Assembly: GCA_964016885.1 (NCBI GenBank)
Contig: OZ024741.1
Coordinates: 88,474,001 to 88,538,000, forward strand
DNA length: 64,000 bases
Source: Eledone cirrhosa
Lineage: Eukaryota
Reading direction: 5' to 3'
Shown piece by piece: positions 1,721-12,144 of the stretch. The position numbers and the translations under genes are program-made. Under the pieces are notes generated by a model. The model saw nothing but the letters and a program-made list of their open reading frames with translations, was not told the origin of the DNA and made no database searches. The stretch's first letter is position 1. Each line of letters starts with the position of its first letter.

Positions 1721-2389
1721 CCCTCTCTTTCTTCTGTGGTCTTAATAGTCCTCGTTCTTTCCCTCATTTTCTTCTCATTTATTGCATTTAATTCCTTTCC
1801 TATACAACCAGATCTGCGCTTCTGTACCCCTTCACCCTTTTTTTCATTATTTACAAATCAATAAAATTTTAAAACTAGTACATACATACACTCACTTTGT
1901 CAGATTTTTAGTTGCCACCCACAAAAAATAATTCTTAAACAAGGCAGGTACAACTTAAAAATTCTTCGCTGGCGGCCAAACGTGATACGAGTTGCAAATT
2001 GACAAATGCGAAATGAAGTGTTAAACTTCAATATTGCCGTTCGCATCAGTCGTTGGTTTAGAATAGTAGCAATTAATTACCCGAAGAGGATTCCTTTAAC
2101 TACGATTAGACCCCCATAAGGATCAAAATAGACCGCGTTTTTTTTTTACCAATTTTGAAATTAACAAGAGGAATATGCGTGCGCAATTACAGAGAGGTAT
2201 GCGTTTCCGGTGAATTTTTTTTTTATAATTATCAAGCTGATTTATCTTGAAAAATAAAATTTATTTCAATAACTAAAATGAAAGTTACTAAAGTAACTGA
2301 TGTTTTATAAATTTATAATTTTTAAATACATACACTGAACGAGAAGACAGCGTGGTTCTCGTTTAATTTAGCCGAAATCTCGTGTAACA

Positions 2390-2417
2390 CTTCCTTTTAC
2401 CATCGTCCATTTTTATT
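2390..2417 (+). promoter_or_regulatory. RPS21: RPS21 TCT-type initiator / 5'TOP non-coding exon 1
   Basis: CTTCCTTTT pyrimidine tract at 2390-2398, GTAAGT donor at 2418 and CTGCAG acceptor ending 2520, 30 nt before the ATG; standard architecture of ribosomal protein genes. Confidence 0.75.
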
Positions 2418-2550
2418 GTAAGTTGTGTCTTAATTCGTCTGAAATATTTTTGTTTAATTACTGAGTTTTTAATATATCTATTGCTTTTAAATTGCATATT
2501 TTGTTTCTTTACGACTGCAGAAGGTTATCTTAAAATATTGTGAGGGAATC

Positions 2551-2600
2551 ATGCAGAACGAAGCCGGTGAATTCGTGGATATGTATATCCCAAGAAAATG
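2551..2600 (+). CDS. RPS21: RPS21 coding exon 1
   Basis: [16 protein letters not shown]+TG, donor GTATG at 2601. Confidence 0.95.
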
Positions 2601-5600
2601 GTATGCTATATATACACGTGGTTTACACGAATTTCTTTTCTTCAATTATAGTTTTAGAATATTTTTATCTATTTACTATTATATTAGCTGTATAACCTTT
2701 TAGGTTTTAGTTGGGTTGTGTTATAAATACGTTCTCTTACCGAAAAGTTTATCTTCGAATGTTTTTCAATGTTTTAATACTTGACTGGCGTCATGTATTA
2801 GAGGGAGAGATTCGTGTAGAAAAAGGCTTGTCAAAGGATCTTTTTTTTCTCTGTGAATTCTAAACGTTAATCCGTATAAAAACGAAAGTGCTCTATTTTT
2901 ACCAATTTCATTTTTATTATCCTGTATTTCACCATAAGTTATTTTATTTTGAATAAATGCGATCGAACGAGCACCCAAATATTTTGCATCTGAGTCTCGG
3001 CTCTTTTGTAATAATTTCCATTCAAATATCTCACGTTTCCGGTTTGATTCCATACGCAATTTGGTCTCGATTTGCAGTTATCACTTGATATTTACTATCT
3101 TAAAAACATACGGGAGCCCAAGATTGGTCTCAAATAGTTTAACTCGCTAAAAGTAGCAGGTAAATTACGCTACGCAGCGTAATCGAAGACACAGAGGGGG
3201 GGGGTTATTATTATAAAAGGATCACGAATTTTATGCTATAACCATAGTTTAGTGCCACAAATTTGTTTAACCATAACGTTCTTGTATGTTTAAATGAAAT
3301 TTATTTTGCAGATACATTTTCGAAGGTGTGTGTAAATTATAATGTTGAAATTTTTTTTAATAGTTTTGTCTTCTATCAATTCATAGTAATTGAAAGAAAA
3401 CATTTATATGCGCCTTATATCTTTAGACATATAATCCAGTTTGAGAAAATTTTAAGAACAGTTGGTGTGAAATTTGTTTTACCTATGATTTTACACAAAA
3501 TAAAACTATTTTTAATTTCATTAAAAGATATGCAATATTAAGAAACGCGGAAGCGAAGTCGTATGGGGTGAACGTATTGTAATTACGTTTTCCAAAGGGT
3601 GTTGCGACTCACGGTAAAAACCTGTGAGTGGAGTCAAAACTTTGGTACATAAAATATTGTATTGTTGAAAATATATCTTTCAGGATTTAGATATTCTGAA
3701 TATTCGACTAATTCATACATACCTACATTTTTGGCAGAATGGTTAGAGCGTCGCGCGAAATGGCTTGCGGAGATCGACTTTGCTAATCCTTTAATCTATC
3801 TCAGTTCATTTTAAGGAAATTTTAGAACTGCTCAAATCTTTGAGGCAGTCTTTGATAATTATCAAAGACTGCCTCAAAGATTTGAGCAGTTCTAAAATTT
3901 CCTTAAAATGAACTGAGATAGATTAAAGGATAATTATCAAAGACTGCCTCAAAGATTTGAACAGTTCTAAAATGATTCAGATTATAATCTGAATCATTTG
4001 TAGTGACTATTTTAAACATTTTATGTATGTTTACAATGGAAAGCATATGTAGTATGTCATGCAAGATATAAACTTAATTCACAAAATTGAATTTATAACA
4101 TAAGCAAGAGTAAACTAAATGTTAAGATAACCGCTCAACGATTTAATCGACAGGTGCCCTTTTTCTCCCTTTTCTTTCAACTTTTTGCGATAACTAATTC
4201 GTGTTCAGCAATTGGTTTCGTCCCCCTGCATTCACACCCTGTTGTTTGTGATTGTAAGAGTTGTGGCCCGTTCTTATTAATGCAAGTTCAATGGAGTGAT
4301 TAGTAGGCGGCGGTATTTTAACCTTTTCGTCGACCACATTTCTTATTTGAATTTTTGAATATGAAATTACTAAAATTATTTCATTAAGATAGTATTTGTA
4401 ACATAATTTAAACGACTTTGTACTATAAAACCAAGGGCAGTTGGGTATCAAATAGCAATAGCTCTGTTAAAAAAAGTTGAACATTGGATGCTGGTAAAAG
4501 CACAAATAAGTATGTTTTGATGTTACAAGTCGGGTGGCTTGCTTTTCCAAAGGGTGTTGCGACTCACAATGAAAACCTGTGAGTGGAGTCAAAACTTTGG
4601 TACATAAAATGTTGAATTGTTGAAACTATACGTCAGATCTTCAATGGTTTGATTGTTCGACTGGTTCACACATTAGTATGTATGAAATACTGATTTTCTT
4701 GAACGGAAATTAAATTTATTTATAGATAGCTATAAAATTTGGTGATTTCTTAGATATTAATTTCATTCAAATTGCCTGCGGTAGAGGGTCAGACACCATA
4801 CTTTGCAGCAAAGTGTTACGGCCCTTTATGGTCTGTATTCAAATCACGCCGAGGTTAACTTTGCCTTTCATCCTTACGGGGTCGATAAAATAAAGTACCA
4901 CTGGGATAATTGCTGGCCTTGTGTCAGAAATAGAAACAATTATTAATATCCATATGGGGGTTAAATATTTTAGGTCACAAAACAAGTGAAAGTAACTTAA
5001 CGAAGTTGCTGAACAGCTCTGTATATACTTGTGAATGTGCAAGCATAAAAATTGGCCATAAAATTGTGGTGATACATATGTTTATATATTTCTATATGTA
5101 CTTTTCTTTTTCTAAGAGACACAATTTTAGCCTCACTGTATAAAGTAAACTAGGTTTGTGTGTCTCTCTAGCACGATGCTTGTTTTACGATCTAAATAAG
5201 ATTTAATCTGCTTGAGATTATAAACATTGATTTATTTTTTATTTTCTCCCCTTTCTCTTCCTTGTATCTCTAGCTCAGCCAGTAATAGCATCATTGCTGC
5301 CAAGGATCATGCTTCCGTACAAATTAACATTGCTGAAGTAAGTACTAGAAATTGATTGTTCTAAAAACATGGGGTGTGGAAATGTTTGTCTATTGCAACA
5401 ACTTGAATTTAGACGATATCACTTGTTAGAAATAACAACCATATCTCATCACACCACCATCTTTAATATGTAAATTGAATAATGTCCTAAATACTGTATC
5501 TAAATGAGACAATGGCTTTGAAGAATGGATCTACTTGAGCAAAAATCAATTGTGTGTGGCATAGTGAAATGGGGAGATTTGGTATCAAAAGGAGCAGTTA

Positions 5601-8600
5601 ACTAGAAACCAAATTCTAGTATTTCAAAGTTTATTGGACCGATTATAAACTGACACCTTTATTTTAAAAAAAACGAATTTATTCAGACTAATGACCTTAC
5701 TTTGGTTATAATCTATAGTTCATTTTACCTTCAAGTGCCTATTAGATTTGGTAGTGTGGGAAACTCAACTTGGCTAAACAGGCAAATCCATGTTATTGAC
5801 TACTGTATTAAGAGCAAACTAATGTAAACTAGAAACTATTTACAATTTTCACGTTTTGAAAATAATCAAGAATTTGGAAGGATTTTGAGAAATGTTCTCA
5901 TTTAGCTGGTGTTTGGATCATAATTGAACAAAAGTTCTTACATAAAATTAGGATAGAATGTTTTTAGGCAAATATAAAGACTTTAAAATAAATGGTTTGG
6001 TATCAAAAAGGTTAAGCAACTGAAAACATTTCACCCTGGTCCTGCAAATATTAATTCTGAAATGAAACAAAACTCTAGCGTAGGTTGGGCAAGTTGTCAT
6101 TGTCTGAGACTAGACTAATCAGGGAGACCTATCTTGTAAACGCATTCCATATTTAGCATGGTTTCTACTGCTATATGTCCTTCCTAACACCAACTATTGG
6201 GTACCATTTTATTGTGACACTAGTACTACTGTATTTTAAAATTAATGAATTTGTGAGGGATTTACCAAAATTATAATAGAATATTTAAGTAGGAACCCTT
6301 TTTCATAGGAGCAGACAGTTGTGTTTAAAATTCTGTTGTTGGTAGAAGAAAAATGGCTAAACAAAGTGAGTGTTCAGTAAAGATACTGTTAACGTTTGAA
6401 TTATCAAATTTTTTTTTATTTTCTGCTGAATTCCAGGATCTTAAGTATAATGTTATTTGTGTGACTTTTATATAAAATGTATCACCAAAGTTGTCAAATT
6501 TCTGTTCACAGTATCCTTGTGAATGGAGCCTAGTCTTTGGGATATAAATAGAGGAATACTTTCAGATATCTTTTTCTTTGTAAAGTTATCTGGACAAGCA
6601 CCTCTGACATTAAACATAATAGTAGCATGTTGGAAACCTAATCTGTCAAATAGCATATGGTTAATAATTCATGTTTGCTTCTTTAATTAATTTTTCAAAT
6701 TTCACTTAATGTATGTTTAAATAGACTCTGGTGCTTCTATCTGAGTAGTTGATAGGTACATGATCTGTCTGAAAGTTAAACCCCAATTCTAAGCTGAAAA
6801 GATTAAGATTAGTGTTTGTGTCTGTTTAAAATGTTTTACTGCTGTATTAAAGATTTTCGTTGCCTTTTGGTTAGGGTGGGTGGGACACTAAAATTGACGT
6901 GCTTATTATAATCCTTTTATCATCAAACAGCCCCCAATTCTTTGGTTTAAAAGGGGGCCATTATTTCATGTGCTTATATTTAAATTAAAGCCTTCTGTCA
7001 TTTTTTATGTGAGAAAATTTTATTAATATGCATTTCAAACACTAGCTTTGTTTTAGTAAATCCCTTTAAATTCTTCATTATTTTAAAAATTAATTGAATA
7101 TTATAGGAAGTGGTTGTTTAAGCTTTGGGGAGGACATCTGGTTGCAGAAAACCAAGCCAAAAATAGCGTATGCGTAAGACATGCTCACCTGCCTGGTCCC
7201 ATGGTGTAACAGCTCGTCTAATCCATGGGAACTGGCAGTAGACTGTGATGAGTGTATTTCAGTAGAAAAGTGGTAACAAAAGGGTTATGGTTAATCTGTT
7301 GTGATTTTTTTATATAAAAATGTACTGCCAAAGTTGTCAAATTTCTGTTCACATAGCATCCTTATGAATGGAGCCAAGTCTTTGGGATATAAATAGAGGA
7401 ACACTTTCAGATAATTTATTTTATAAAGTTGTTTGGACAAGCACCTCTGACATTACTTTTTTTTCCTCCGTTCCAATTTAGGCAAGAATTTAAACATTTT
7501 TTGTAAATCAACTATGGTTTTTTTTGTTTGATATGAGGGCCATTTTTTTTTTTAGGAGTAAATCTATTATATAAATTTTGTTTCAAAACTTCTCCAGTTA
7601 TAGGTAAATTATTTAAATGAATTATCAACCAATATTCAACTGTATATAACAAAATTGTGCACATTATAAACAGGTGATGAAAGATGTAACTCTTATCAAA
7701 TAATCTATTAAAGTTGTGTTGCAGCAAATGTAGTGACAAGATTTGTGTTGATATTCTCATTTAAATATGTTATGTCGGGCAACTTGGAATCGAAAGAAAT
7801 ATAAAACTCCAAAAAGAACGAAAATGAATACATTTTTTACCTTTTCAGGTAGATGTTACCACAGGCAGAATGACAGGCTCCAACAAAACATATGCAATTT
7901 GTGGGAAGATCCGACAGATGGTAATATTTTAGCTTGCTTGTTTGTGTGTGTGTGTTTTTATATATATATCTCAATTTTGTCATTCACATGTGTGTTTACA
8001 ATTTTGATACTTGTTGAATCCCACTACATTTATAATGTATACACTATAAAGTTTTTTAACATGGTGCATTGAAAATATGTCCAATGCATTACATTATAAA
8101 AAAAAACGCATTAAAGAAATTAATGTATCAAATTTTGTTAATTCTATGGCTCATTAAGTCATGCCGTTTATGTTGAACATAAGCATTGACTTAACGTTTT
8201 TGTAAATTGAATGTACTTTCAACATTGTATTTTTGATTCCAGTTTATTCATAAGTTGGGATGTTGTCTATGTACTGAAGTCATTTAATTTAAACAATCAG
8301 TGCAGTTTAGTGATCTAGTGACTGAAGTACCATACTTACAGATGAAGGTTGACATTAATGGGGACAGCTTCTTGTCCCCACCTATTTATTTATCAAGACA
8401 ATGTTTCATGCTAGTGTTGTAAAAGTATTGTTAAGGTAATGTCATCATTTTATGCACATCTTCCCTGCTATCAGGGGTTAGGCAAATCTTCAGAGATATA
8501 GTCAGTACTCAGGTGGGTTGGGGTTCTGCTTTCTACTAAGTTCTATTTTCCATGGTACCAGCACTACTAAGGAGATAAGACATGTCTTTGAGACAGCTGA

Positions 8601-11600
8601 AGGGGGCTTTCGACCCATTGTTTAACATTAGCCTCTTTACGGAGTATATTGAGTGCATTTATCGTATGGATCACCAACACAACTGAAGAGTCCTTCTGAC
8701 ACTTTCTTTGGAATATATAAAATTGAAATCTGGTAATTTATTTTTCTATTTTCTAACCAAAGTTGTCAAATTCCTGTTCACAGCTCAATTTTTGTGACTA
8801 GGGCCAAAGCTTTAGGAAATGAAAATATTAATACTTTCAGATAAATTTTCCATATAAAGTTGTCTGAACAAGCACCTCTGACATTTATTTTATAAAATAA
8901 AATGACTTCTTTGGTTCTTAACTCATTGTATCTTGTGGTCGTATATGATTACTTCCCTTAGTATGTGTCACCTTTTGTTTTCATGCTACCTCCTTAAGCC
9001 AAATAGTAACAATTAATAGTTTTTTAATATGGCCATATCAAAATTGCTCTAAGTTTATAAATTAAGATGTGAAAATTCCAAACTGAATTTTCTAAAGGAT
9101 ATTGCAAAAAATAAACAATTTGATATGATATAATGTAAGCAAAAAAGGAAATTATTTTCTATAAGTATCAACATCAAGGGAAATGTTCCAGATGATAGGG
9201 TTTGAAACAGTTAATACAGGGATTTACTTTGCATTGCTCACAGTCTGTTTTTGGTTCCCTTCTAATTTGTTAGGAACACTGCTTACAAGTTCTCTTTTTC
9301 TCTGTGTCTACAAACCAGTACATAGCTTCTTGAACCTGGGGGAGCTTTTGACGTCTTTCCTATCTTTTCTTATTGTGCCGCAAGCATAGGTCCTATTCTT
9401 TAAAAGTTCCTGACAGGGAGGAAAAAATCACAATACACGATTTTTTTCCCCTCTATGTCCCTCGTGAGGTCCTTTACAAATCTTTTTCTAAGTCCTAGTT
9501 CCGTTTAATTTGGGACTTTCCCTGTATAAACTTGGAAGTCGTTTACAAAGCTGTTGTGTGGATCAGTTGGCATATGCTTTGTAGGCTTCAGTGGAAGATA
9601 TTGTTTGAAGTTGTCCAGTGAAAGCAACCATGTCTTCATCAATCAATGTGAACTGTACTGTGACTTCAAGTTTCCACATATCCTTTCAATAAATGGGCAA
9701 TTTTGTGTTTAGAGTGGCCAAGTTCTGGATTCTGGGTGATAGCTGAAATATTGAAATACTGGTTCAGTTTGTCCAGTCATGTCCTGATTGGGGATAAAAA
9801 CAACTCCCACCACTATCTGAAACGCAATCTTGGCCCTCATTTCTGATCAGGGCTTTTTGTTTCAATTGCCTGTTAGTCAGACAAATTCTTATTAAATATC
9901 TGAAAGAACTACATTTTTTTCCTTTTAAATTTGATGATTTGTTCTATTTGCTAGTGATTGAAACAAATACGCAGGAACAATTATTTTTTAGCATCCATAA
10001 TATTTACTGGTCCAAGATTTTCTCTGAATGTATCATCAATTTCAGAAAATCGATTGTTCCATTCCGACGTGGGTTTGCTAACATCATCATCATCATCATC
10101 ATCAATGTCTTATAAATTGTCGTTATTAAAATGTGTTGCTCGCTCTTTCTCTCAAAAAGGGAGTGATTAATTGCAACATACCTTTATATTCGAATAAAAT
10201 GTATAGCTTCCTAATTCATCCAATCACTGTATTTTACATTAGAAATGAGTACGCCTCATGCCATGGCTGTAGTCTTGGTTTGACTATGGATTTGATCACA
10301 GCAAGTTTTCTCATGCATTGACTTTCACTGATATTTTAATGTCTCAGTTGCAGTTGTAATAAGTGTCTGCAGATAGTTTTCCAGATCTATGGCAGCATAG
10401 CTTTAGTCTCTAATCATACCATTTTGCGGAAAATATATACAAACTGGTTTCTTAATTCAAATGTATATATCTTTATTAGTGGATAGATTGTTGTGAAAAT
10501 TTGCAATATTACAATCATGGTACTTATCAAGAATGTCTTGCTAATGAAGTTATGTTAATTAATTTTTCTATTATTCAATCTACAGGGTGAATCTGATGAC
10601 AGCATTTGCCGCTTAGCAAAACAAGATGGAATTATTGCAAAGTAAGTTGTAAAATGTTGGTTGTTTTTTTTTTGTACTTCATAATTGTAGAAAAAATGTA
10701 TTTTGGGAACATTGTTGGCTATAGGTTTTCATCAGGCAAATCATTGATTTCTGTGTTTTATGGCAAAAAAGATAAGGGGATGAATGTATGTAAGAGCATA
10801 AGTTGAATAATTGCTATTGAGTTGTTTGTTTTTTTAATGTGAATAGCATCAGTTTATCTGCAATTTTCTTGCTGATATATGCTTGGCATGCTTCTGCAGC
10901 TTTGTTACCAAAATTCAATGATGGTGGGGGCATTGATCAAGTTGAGGATGTGCTAAAACAGCGATTGCCAACCTTTTAGACCTCACAAACCACTAATGTG
11001 ATTTTTTTTTAAAAAGATAAATACATTTGTAAAATAATAATCAGAGAACTACCATTTTATTAATACTGAAGCGTACATCATCATCATTTTACGTCCGCTT
11101 TTCCCTGCTTGCAAATGTGTCATATTGTCGATAGATGATACGAGTGTAAAATTCTTTCATGGATGTTAGTTCTTTACTGAATAGAAAATTTTTTAGGGGT
11201 GTTATAAAATATATTTTAACCAAATATTATTTTTGTTTTATTAGGGCGGTGGATTGGCAGTATCGGTAGAGAGTCAGACACCATGCTTTCCAGCATAGTT
11301 ACGTCCCTTTACGATCTGAGTTCAAATCCCGCCGAGGTTGACTTTGCCTTTCATCCTTACGGGGTCGATAAAATAAAGTACCAGCAATGCACTGGGATAA
11401 TTGATGGCCTTGTGCCAAAAGTAGAAACAATTATTTTTGTTTTATTATTAATAAAACATAAAAATTGCAAATGTCCAAATTTTTCCATGGACCATCACAA
11501 TTTTCTCTCAGACCACCAGTTGGTGACTGCTGTGTTAGAAGACACTTGCTCAAACTACTGTATAGTGTAATTGTAGCCTGAGCCAGCTGGTTGCAAATTT

Positions 11601-11804
11601 TTGTATCAAACATCCATGTCCACAATGTTCTAAACACCAGATAAATAAGTTACTTCTATTGATTCAAATAGGGTGGTTTTCTCTAAATGTTTTTTTGTTT
11701 TTTTTTCTGTAATATTAATTTCTCAAAATGTTTATTTTTAATACATGTTGCAGTTTTCTGTGAATTAAAATGTTTATTTTTCTTTTACTTTCAGGAATTA
11801 TTAA
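2551..11804 (+). CDS. RPS21: 40S ribosomal protein S21 (eS21), join(2551-2600,5274-5337,7849-7920,10586-10641,11795-11804), 83 aa
   Basis: Spliced translation [83 protein letters not shown]; all introns GT-AG with consistent phases; AATAAA at 11818-11823. Confidence 0.97.
3591..3722 (+). ncRNA. SNORA13: Box H/ACA snoRNA family A copy 1 (SNORA13/snR35-like, predicted guide for 18S U1248)
   Basis: Hairpin CCAAAG..CUUUGG, H box ACAUAA 3647-3652, second hairpin, ACA 3717-3719; pocket GUGUU/GUCAAA is complementary to 18S UUUGAC-U-C-AACAC and lies 14 nt from the H box; duplicated at 4546. Confidence 0.85.
3786..3931. repeat. Perfect 146-bp palindrome, followed by a partial direct copy (3929-3973) and a 30-bp palindrome (3970-3999)
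   Basis: Arms are exact reverse complements around tttgataa|ttatcaaa (centre 3858/3859). Confidence 0.95.
4546..4675 (+). ncRNA. SNORA13: Box H/ACA snoRNA family A copy 2 (SNORA13/snR35-like)
   Basis: 5' hairpin nearly identical to copy 1, differing only at the apical stem/loop; H box ACAUAA 4602-4607; 3' hairpin UGAAUUGUUGAA..UUCGACUGGUUCA; ACA 4670-4672. Confidence 0.85.
4776..4945 (+). mobile_element. tRNA-derived SINE
   Basis: B-box-like ttcaaatc followed by cgccgaggttaactttgcctttcatccttacggggtcgataaaataaagtacc; many copies in the window. Confidence 0.8.
5274..5337 (+). CDS. RPS21: RPS21 coding exon 2
   Basis: C+[21 protein letters not shown]; polypyrimidine tract with TAG acceptor; GTAAGT donor. 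Confidence 0.95.
6484..6612 (+). ncRNA. Box H/ACA snoRNA family B copy 1 (predicted guides for 18S U1238 and U36)
   Basis: CCAAAG..CUUUGG hairpin, H box AUAUAA 6542-6547, AGAGG..CCUCU hairpin, ACA 6607-6609; pockets GUCAAAUU/GCC and CUUU/GACAAGCA each lie 14 nt from their box. Confidence 0.85.
7327..7455 (+). ncRNA. Box H/ACA snoRNA family B copy 2
   Basis: Near-identical to 6484-6612 with both pockets kept; H box 7387-7392; ACA 7450-7452. Confidence 0.85.
7849..7920 (+). CDS. RPS21: RPS21 coding exon 3
   Basis: [31 protein letters not shown] acceptor; GTAAT donor. Confidence 0.95.
8756..8886 (+). ncRNA. Box H/ACA snoRNA family B copy 3 (diverged; basal stem of the 3' hairpin broken)
   Basis: 5' pocket GUCAAAUU/GCC kept with a compensatory stem change; H box AAAUGA 8817-8822; ACA 8881-8883; AGAGG strand replaced by AUAUU. 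Confidence 0.65.
9185..10110 (-). pseudogene. Decayed piggyBac-type transposase inside an RPS21 intron
   Basis: Minus-strand remnants in correct order: acidic N-terminus DIDDDDDDDV..FRENLGP, IDEDMVAFTG, QYLPLKPTK, FVNDFQVYTGK, LLKNRTYACGTIRKDRK and C-terminal Cys-rich CEQCKVNPCINCFKPYH; frameshifts and stops. Confidence 0.8.
10586..10641 (+). CDS. RPS21: RPS21 coding exon 4
   Basis: [18 protein letters not shown]+AA; TACAG acceptor; GTAAGT donor. Confidence 0.95.
10959..11532. mobile_element. hAT-like MITE with a nested RTE tail and SINE
   Basis: Termini cagcgattgccaac / gttggtgactgctg; degenerate 8-bp flanks tgctaaaa / tgttagaa. Confidence 0.5.
11244..11435 (+). mobile_element. Full-length tRNA-derived SINE
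   Basis: A box tggcagtatcgg, B box gagttcaaatcc and the conserved body; other copies near 26797, 29028, 30191, 30917, 44800 and 46388. Confidence 0.85.
11795..11804 (+). CDS. RPS21: RPS21 terminal coding exon
   Basis: G AAT TAT TAA completes K-N-Y-stop; TTTCAG acceptor; AATAAA 14 nt downstream. Confidence 0.9.
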
Positions 11805-12144
11805 ATATGACCTGTCAAATAAAAAATTAAAACTGTAAAATTAGTCTTGCTTGTTTTTCTTTTCCATCTTTGCCAGTAAAATACTCTGGTTGTCAAACCT
11901 TTTCAAACAATAAATTGAATCTTGACTGTTGAATTGGTTTGCAAAACAATCTAGAAAGGTGTTTTAACTAACTCACTTATAATATGGCCCATCATCATAT
12001 TCGTTTTTGCATGATTCTTTGATTTGGTATATGGTCTAGTTGCTTGAGGTTAGTGTTACAGATAGTTGTCATTTGCATCGATTCTCTAAAAGCTTTGGTT
12101 CCACATACCTTATCTATGGCTATCATGGTGCTAGCTAACATCCA

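Follow-up and report, generated by a model that had tools for sequence, protein, structure and literature searches.

The octopus Eledone cirrhosa very probably carries, in the introns of its gene for ribosomal protein RPS21, five units with the shape of H/ACA small nucleolar RNAs (snoRNAs), which form two locally duplicated families and are predicted to be excised from the spliced introns and to direct the pseudouridylation of 18S ribosomal RNA (rRNA). The gene lies in the window analyzed here, a 64-kb stretch (G000:C2:88474001-88538000) of a 3.0-Gb assembly; positions given below without a locus name refer to this window. An initial annotation of this DNA had described five ~130-nt elements with a hairpin-H box-hairpin-ACA architecture in the sense orientation of RPS21, and all five lie where it had put them. 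They are 129-132 nt long, cover 651 nt together and are distributed over introns 2 to 4. Each of the five has an ANANNA H box after the first hairpin and an ACA box followed by a 3-nt tail.

Two units in intron 2, E1 (3591..3722, H box at 3647, ACA at 3717) and its paralog E2 (4546..4675, boxes at 4602 and 4670), make up family A, which is of the SNORA13/snR35 type. Both have a 5' pocket of 6+5 bp and a 3' hairpin to which no target could be assigned. Family B consists of the paralogs E3 (6484..6612, boxes at 6542 and 6607) and E4 (7327..7455, boxes at 7387 and 7450) in intron 3 and E5 (8756..8886, boxes at 8817 and 8881) in intron 4; all five units are on the + strand. E3 has a 5' pocket of 3+8 bp and a 3' pocket of 8+4 bp, and both pockets are intact in E4; in E5 the 5' pocket is intact and the 3' hairpin is damaged. 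The distance from a unit to the following 3' splice site is 393-1,699 nt. The 3' ends of the units are inferred from the point at which similarity between copies stops.

Comparison of the copies revealed that core identity is 81% between E1 and E2 and 77-89% among E3, E4 and E5, and falls to 56-59% between families. The 130-nt flanks are 46-53% identical within families versus 45-51% between them, in agreement with the earlier proposal that paralogs resemble each other mainly within the units; E3 and E4 are 67% alike over the 40 nt that precede them. Judged by these identities, the five units are two duplicated families (E1/E2 and E3/E4/E5) and not five independent guides. Because little flanking sequence came along with the copies, they likely arose by short local duplications. 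No sixth unit was found in the window with our own models R1 and R2, and no C/D box candidates were seen in 2418-11794. One possible sixth unit at 5685, with 15 bp to 28S rRNA, was rejected as an A-run pairing with a U-rich segment, and it has no H/ACA fold.

The target uridine of an H/ACA guide lies approximately 14-16 nt from the H or ACA box. Target sites were ranked among the 1,825 uridines of this genome's own 18S (L009), 5.8S and 28S (L013) and U2 (L017) RNAs. With fixed pocket geometry, the 5' pockets of E1 and E2 form 6+5 pairs around U1939 of the own 18S (human 1248), those of E3, E4 and E5 form 3+8 pairs around U1929 (human 1238), and the 3' pockets of E3 and E4 form 8+4 pairs around U37, which we take to be human U36 from the human 18S 5' sequence. 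U1929 lies 10 nt before U1939, the same spacing as between human 1238 and 1248 and between yeast 1181 and 1191. Seven of the eight assigned pockets rank their own site first, with 11-12 Watson-Crick pairs and no G-U pair, and for these seven only 0-2 of 200 shuffled target sets scored as well. The three sites are those named by the initial annotation, and its statement that every predicted pocket lies 14 nt from a box is borne out for all eight. A complete bipartite pocket, with at least 8 bp at ~14-16 nt from the box, was found in 7 of the 10 hairpins. Both 18S segments that the annotation had named as targets are present in each of the five own 18S copies checked (of 11 listed). When the whole window was scanned under a single rule, 35 rows were returned; the units, with their 651 nt, account for eight of these (seven distinct pockets), and the other 27 lie in the remainder of the 128,000 strand-bases. 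Approximately 0.14 rows would be expected in 651 nt, and the concentration in the units is about fifty-fold. In the free-geometry scan, U37 ranked first for both E3 and E4 with a score of 29, against 25 for the best of 12 shuffles.

These sites are known from other eukaryotes. Human 1248 carries m1acp3-pseudouridine, which is described as absolutely conserved in eukaryotes and is made in a three-step synthesis beginning with SNORA13 (10.1101/840132). The own U1939 sits in a GAxTC (HinfI) context, the context used to assay human 18S 1248 (10.1101/840132). In yeast, 1181 is guided by snR85 and 1191 by snR35 (PMC5699541), and snR85 pairs 8+4 around U1181U1182 (PMC6049503). Among vertebrate guides, SNORA13 targets 18S U1248 and has an extra copy in Xenopus, SNORA5 (three copies) targets U1238 and U1625, SNORA55 targets 18S U36 and 681, and SNORA69 targets 5.8S U69 and 18S U36 (PMC6984369). 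Position 36 is targeted by SNORA55 in birds, mammals and reptiles, and the same study detected no pseudouridine at 18S U36 in zebrafish or in any of four amphibians (PMC6984369). The own 18S genes (L008-L012) are 2,860-2,878 nt long, compared with a model of 1,831 positions, at ~60% G+C, and the 28S is ~5,100 nt. Long rRNAs are known from cephalopods.

The two remaining hairpins, the 3' hairpins of E1 and E2, had no common target in 18S, 5.8S, 28S or U2. The best site for E1, 28S 296, scored 30 and above its 12 shuffles, but needs a different, tiny upper stem with five G-U pairs. For E2, three sites tied at a score of 30, all within the range of its own shuffles. Because the best sites of the two copies differ, none was accepted. 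The 3' hairpin of family A is likely structural. The earlier claim that all five units aim at 18S thus stands when counted per RNA; counted per pocket it does not, and it reflects two events, not five.

The initial annotation had read the 18S targets as a subunit-matched logic, in which selection favors a small-subunit protein gene that co-produces small-subunit guides. All eight assigned pockets do fall on 18S and none on 28S, and in human, ribosomal-protein hosts are 10.55-fold enriched and have the highest snoRNA abundance (PMC13736004). However, with two families only, the pattern amounts to two placements independent of each other. Across vertebrates, SNORA3A shifts between ribosomal-protein genes of the large and the small subunit (PMC13736004), a putative 28S guide lies within an intron of sponge RPS19 (PMC3412847), human SNORA13 is hosted by the long non-coding RNA (lncRNA) EPB41L4A-AS1 (PMC12975130), and Hoeppner and Poole argue that selection maintains broad expression, not location (PMC3511168). 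We consider selection for subunit matching improbable, and this part of the earlier proposal is unsupported.

E1 (z-score -3.09), E2 (-2.69) and E3 (-3.61) each fold better than all 200 of their shuffles. With the boxes held open, E1 to E4 form two full hairpins. These four adopt the complete hairpin-hinge-hairpin-tail fold with single-stranded boxes, and E5 lacks the 3' lower stem. In the modelled structures, 72 of 78 stem cells pair in family B and 61 of 62 in family A. Two-sided pair changes number one in family B and two in family A.

Several observations weigh against assigning a guide function to the units. For E4 (z-score -0.87), 35 of 200 shuffles fold as well as the native sequence, and for E5 (-1.30), 16 of 200 do so. 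The covariation is not significant with two or three sequences per family, as 168 of 500 shuffles for family B and 133 of 500 for family A were as good, and the stem models were derived from these same sequences. Pocket geometry was set by hand from the folds with the proposed targets already known, which makes the shuffle counts optimistic. When geometry was left free, U1929 (score 27) was first or tied, and 2-5 of 12 shuffles were as good, with best scores of 28-34; E3 tied with a site in 28S, and both E3 and E4 tied with the adjacent U1930 register. The same scan missed U1939 for E1 and E2, because it required a standard closing pair and these two have G-A there; the G-A closing pair is also found in the consensus of the Tetrahymena guide TtnuHACA21. 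Single 11-bp pockets also arise by chance, as the 27 rows elsewhere in the window indicate. In addition, all Rfam scores of the units are far under the family cut-offs.

E5 raises the question of how many copies work. It is about an even call that only some of them do, most likely E2, E3, E4 and perhaps E1, with E5 and possibly others being recent duplicates that are turning into pseudogenes; this would refine the guide interpretation and leave it otherwise in place. In E5, three of the five lower-stem pairs of the 3' hairpin are lost, each 5' stem has one broken pair, and an A at 8867, the first base of the 3' guide strand, mismatches beside the target U, leaving 7+4 pairs. Its 3' pocket lost first rank, and 120 of 200 shuffles match its best site. 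The 3' lower stem does not form even when the boxes are kept unpaired, and a guide is stated to need two stable hairpins (PMC6049503). Introns 2 and 3, with two units each, add to the case, as their lariats would need an extra cut or would give one snoRNA. Conversely, E5 retains both boxes, the whole 5' pocket and the invariant 3' end although its flanks are at background identity, and both sides of its pocket closing pair have changed, from U-A to C-G. Pockets need a minimum of eight pairs, and one mismatch next to the target is tolerated where pairing is extensive (PMC6049503). Position 8867 is A in the assembly and in runs X1 and X4, but one contig of run X3 (depth 5.09), from the same sample as X1, has G, the pairing letter, and the 3' pocket may be polymorphic there. 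E5 is likely partly decayed.

Genome-wide copy number bears on whether the units are instead pieces of a transposon, or chance hairpins that pair with rRNA. Repeats do occur in the introns, among them a palindrome that separates E1 from E2 and has a dispersed arm, the Rfam scores are under cut-off, and two E1-like copies exist elsewhere. The E3 query returned at least three matches in the 3.0-Gb genome, and all three listed are in RPS21; the E2 query returned at least four, two in RPS21 and one each at L006:1492-1621 (-) and L007:1492-1611 (+). Model R2 gives the latter two 97.6 and 57.8 bits. In both, the first stem has lost its 5' strand and the ACA is changed, and the two have a common 3' flank; they probably represent one captured E1 piece that was later copied again. 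For family B, a 12-nt word was counted 47 times in the genome and its control word 43 times. Moreover, with one and the same spacing, three separate pockets hit three sites that are listed as pseudouridines. The initial annotation had named many dispersed copies as the sign of a transposon, and only these two broken ones turned up among the matches listed; on this evidence from the genome sequence, a transposon origin is in practice ruled out, and we give transposon pieces and chance hairpins taken together a very small chance. Among metagenome RPS21 loci (the best 80 of 312, 47-80% identity), R1 gave one match at an E-value of 0.9 and R2 none; these loci mostly have no long introns, their taxa are unclassified, and they are uninformative on molluscs.

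The palindrome is a perfect one of 146 nt at 3786-3931 in intron 2, with 73-nt arms and no spacer, and a third arm copy is present at 3929-3973. An arm segment of ~45-55 nt recurs at many places in the genome (82 rows, with 40 of 149 candidates scored). The palindrome is probably either a small repeat that has been folded back or an artefact of the assembly. Conceivably it could also serve as an RNase III cut site between E1 and E2; there is no counterpart between E3 and E4. Rfam matches to microRNAs at 3803-3914 are spurious products of the perfect palindrome. Two short interspersed repeat copies, ~90% alike, lie at 4779-4944 and 11264-11435, and in three runs their summed contig depth is very high; the repeat is probably a short interspersed nuclear element (SINE).

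The host gene is RPS21. It extends over ~2390-11830 on the + strand and comprises an 83-codon frame in five coding exons separated by GT..AG introns. The only match to PF01249 in the genome (one of the seven candidates scored) is window 5275-5346, falling on exon 3, at 33.3 bits and above cut-off. When the 43-residue open frame that surrounds exon 3 was used as the query, two proteins came back (11 candidates); one of them, the closest named homolog, is 40S ribosomal protein S21 of Octopus, 96% identical across 53% of the query. In run X4, one contig contains the spliced joints 5337>7849 and 10641>11795, both GT..AG; RPS21 joints are not listed for runs X1 and X3, whose counts are incomplete. 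Exon 1 (2390..2417, start approximate) is inferred and likely non-coding, with a 5' pyrimidine tract resembling a terminal oligopyrimidine (TOP) motif and a GTAAGT donor at 2418. Exon 2 (2521..2600) has the ATG at 2551, and its GT..AG junctions keep the 83-codon frame. It is followed by exon 3 (5274..5337), exon 4 (7849..7920), exon 5 (10586..10641) and the last coding exon (11795..11804), which has the stop codon; AATAAA lies at ~11818. Exons 4 and 5 are bounded by GT..AG junctions, and the run X4 joints involve exons 3, 4 and 5 and the last coding exon.

Excision from an intron and isomerization guided by ribonucleoproteins (RNPs) are established for the H/ACA class. By this route the RPS21 pre-mRNA would be spliced, and the H/ACA core proteins (dyskerin, NHP2, NOP10 and GAR1) would bind and protect the units while the introns are trimmed. 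In introns 2 and 3, either a cut would separate the two units or each lariat would yield one. The resulting RNPs would then isomerize three uridines in pre-18S. For the 5' hairpin of family A, the predicted target is the uridine of the P site that is converted to m1acp3-pseudouridine (human 1248, yeast 1191). In family B, the 5' hairpin is predicted to guide the uridine equivalent to human 1238 and yeast 1181, and the 3' hairpin the U36-equivalent. Two 18S pseudouridines of deep conservation would likely receive their guides from RPS21, in an animal group where Rfam cut-offs miss the snoRNAs, and orthologous guides should be findable by combining pocket and target. Knock-down of octopus RPS21, or changes in its splicing, would likely affect rRNA modification. 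The proposal also makes a testable prediction, a pseudouridine at the U36-equivalent of octopus 18S, a site that is patchy in vertebrates.

At the Rfam cut-offs, the 64-kb window has only two matches, both to microRNAs on the palindrome, and all five units are missed. Since their scores lie below the cut-offs, automatic annotation would pass them over; the initial annotation had expected this of ORF-based annotation. Below cut-off, SNORA13 scores 23.5 bits on E1 and 22.8 on E2 against a gathering score of 53, and snR85 scores 15.6 bits on E3 against 37. For a 201-nt stretch around each unit, H/ACA families account for five of the seven matches to E1 (snoR03, TtnuHACA21, SNORA13, SNORA41 and S. 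pombe snR46) and for three of the six matches to E3 at E-values up to 10 (ceN125, snR85 and snoU19). Agreement of the Rfam consensuses with E1 and E3 sits in the guide strands. SNORA5 is absent from the six E3 matches and from 25 matches over 2300-12000, and neither SNORA55 nor SNORA69 matched the E3 stretch or 2300-12000 at E-values up to 10. Of the three Rfam families put forward earlier, SNORA13 therefore matches E1 and E2 below cut-off, SNORA5 and SNORA69 do not match E3, and the U36 pocket is not SNORA69-like by any of the tests applied. Run genome-wide, the SNORA13 model gave no match among the 45 of ~328,000 candidates scored, E1 and E2 being missed as well. The SNORA5 model gave one 77-nt match under cut-off at L018 (G000:C5:15665942-15666018, -), with 27.3 of 30 bits and an E-value of 1.38.

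Family A has in common with SNORA13 (ACA13; RF00396), snR35, TtnuHACA21 (RF02328) and snoR03 (RF01584) a 5' pocket on the m1acp3-pseudouridine site, and the guide strands of the SNORA13, TtnuHACA21 and snoR03 consensuses are the same as those of E1. Like family A, SNORA13 has a long 3' lower stem and a single listed target, and its Xenopus copies lie 3.5 kb apart. Family A differs in its stems, which are off the vertebrate consensus, and in residing in RPS21, not in the lncRNA EPB41L4A-AS1 (PMC12975130). The formal score failed; judging by the pocket and guide strands, family A is probably an ortholog of SNORA13/snR35 and would work like it.

Family B shares with SNORA5 (ACA5; RF00392), snR85 (RF01240) and ceN125 (RF01620) a 5' pocket for 18S U1238/yeast 1181 with an 8-bp long arm, and the guide strands of the snR85 and ceN125 consensuses are the same as those of E3. 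Around the UU dinucleotide snR85 forms 8+4 bp (PMC6049503), whereas family B forms 8+3, the short arm being 3 bp. Both human SNORA5 and family B occur as three clustered copies (PMC6984369). The second target of family B, however, is U36 (best site U37), where SNORA5 of human and of Xenopus has U1625; family B is also hosted by RPS21, and it falls short of the gathering score of 30 bits. By its pocket, the 5' half of family B is predicted to work like snR85/SNORA5, and family B fails as SNORA5 on the second target and on score. SNORA55 (ACA55) and SNORA69 (U69) share the predicted U36 target without Rfam similarity, and their other pockets are for 18S U681 and 5.8S U69, respectively, compared with U1929 for family B. 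The consensus of the 3' hairpin of snoU19 (RF01236) resembles family B (window 6548-6612): the tail and the lower stem agree, as does the greater part of the right guide strand. At 15.6 bits and an E-value of 2.6, however, the match is at chance level, and the 5' halves do not align. As we read it, the printed snoU19 consensus would center its pairing on a U that lies two positions further upstream (human U34), and it is possible that the 3' hairpin of family B came from a snoU19-like U34 guide by a shift of register. Antisense elements are shuffled between snoRNA families and point mutations can switch targets (PMC6984369). A more speculative proposal, which we hold to be possible but rather doubtful, is that family B is a chimera built in cephalopods from an ancient snR85/SNORA5-type 5' hairpin and a U36-targeting 3' hairpin, perhaps by a two-base shift from a U34 guide, and that RPS21 is the main source of the guide for the P-site m1acp3-pseudouridine. 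If so, octopus 18S would bear a U36 pseudouridine that has no counterpart in fish and amphibians and is installed in amniotes by the unrelated SNORA55, a convergent gain of one rRNA modification.

What is mildly new here is RPS21 as a host and the likely pairing of U1238 and U36 in one guide, a combination of targets not seen in vertebrates. No paper was found that names RPS21 as a snoRNA host or describes these guides in a mollusc, in searches that did not extend to snoRNA databases and most subscription papers, which could list RPS21. The arrangement itself is an ordinary one in animals. Ribosomal-protein genes host snoRNAs in 28 cases in human (PMC3412847, PMC2246290) and 27 in Drosophila (PMC2246290), and intronic clusters of H/ACA genes are described in Drosophila, by a title cited in PMC2246290. 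Of snoRNA orthologs, 77% remain in some ribosomal-protein gene, and many switch which one (PMC13736004); snoRNA mobility is ongoing, according to Hoeppner and Poole (PMC3511168). Hosting by RPS21 that is specific to one lineage would be unremarkable if true, because host switching is the documented norm. Ribosomal-protein hosting, local duplication and host switching are all well documented, and the units leave the known picture of snoRNA organization and movement unchanged. Sponge ribosomal-protein introns, including those of RPL13A, show snoRNA cis-duplication into neighboring introns (PMC3412847), and in organization and inferred origin the RPS21 units are like snoRNAs of this kind in the introns of other ribosomal-protein genes.

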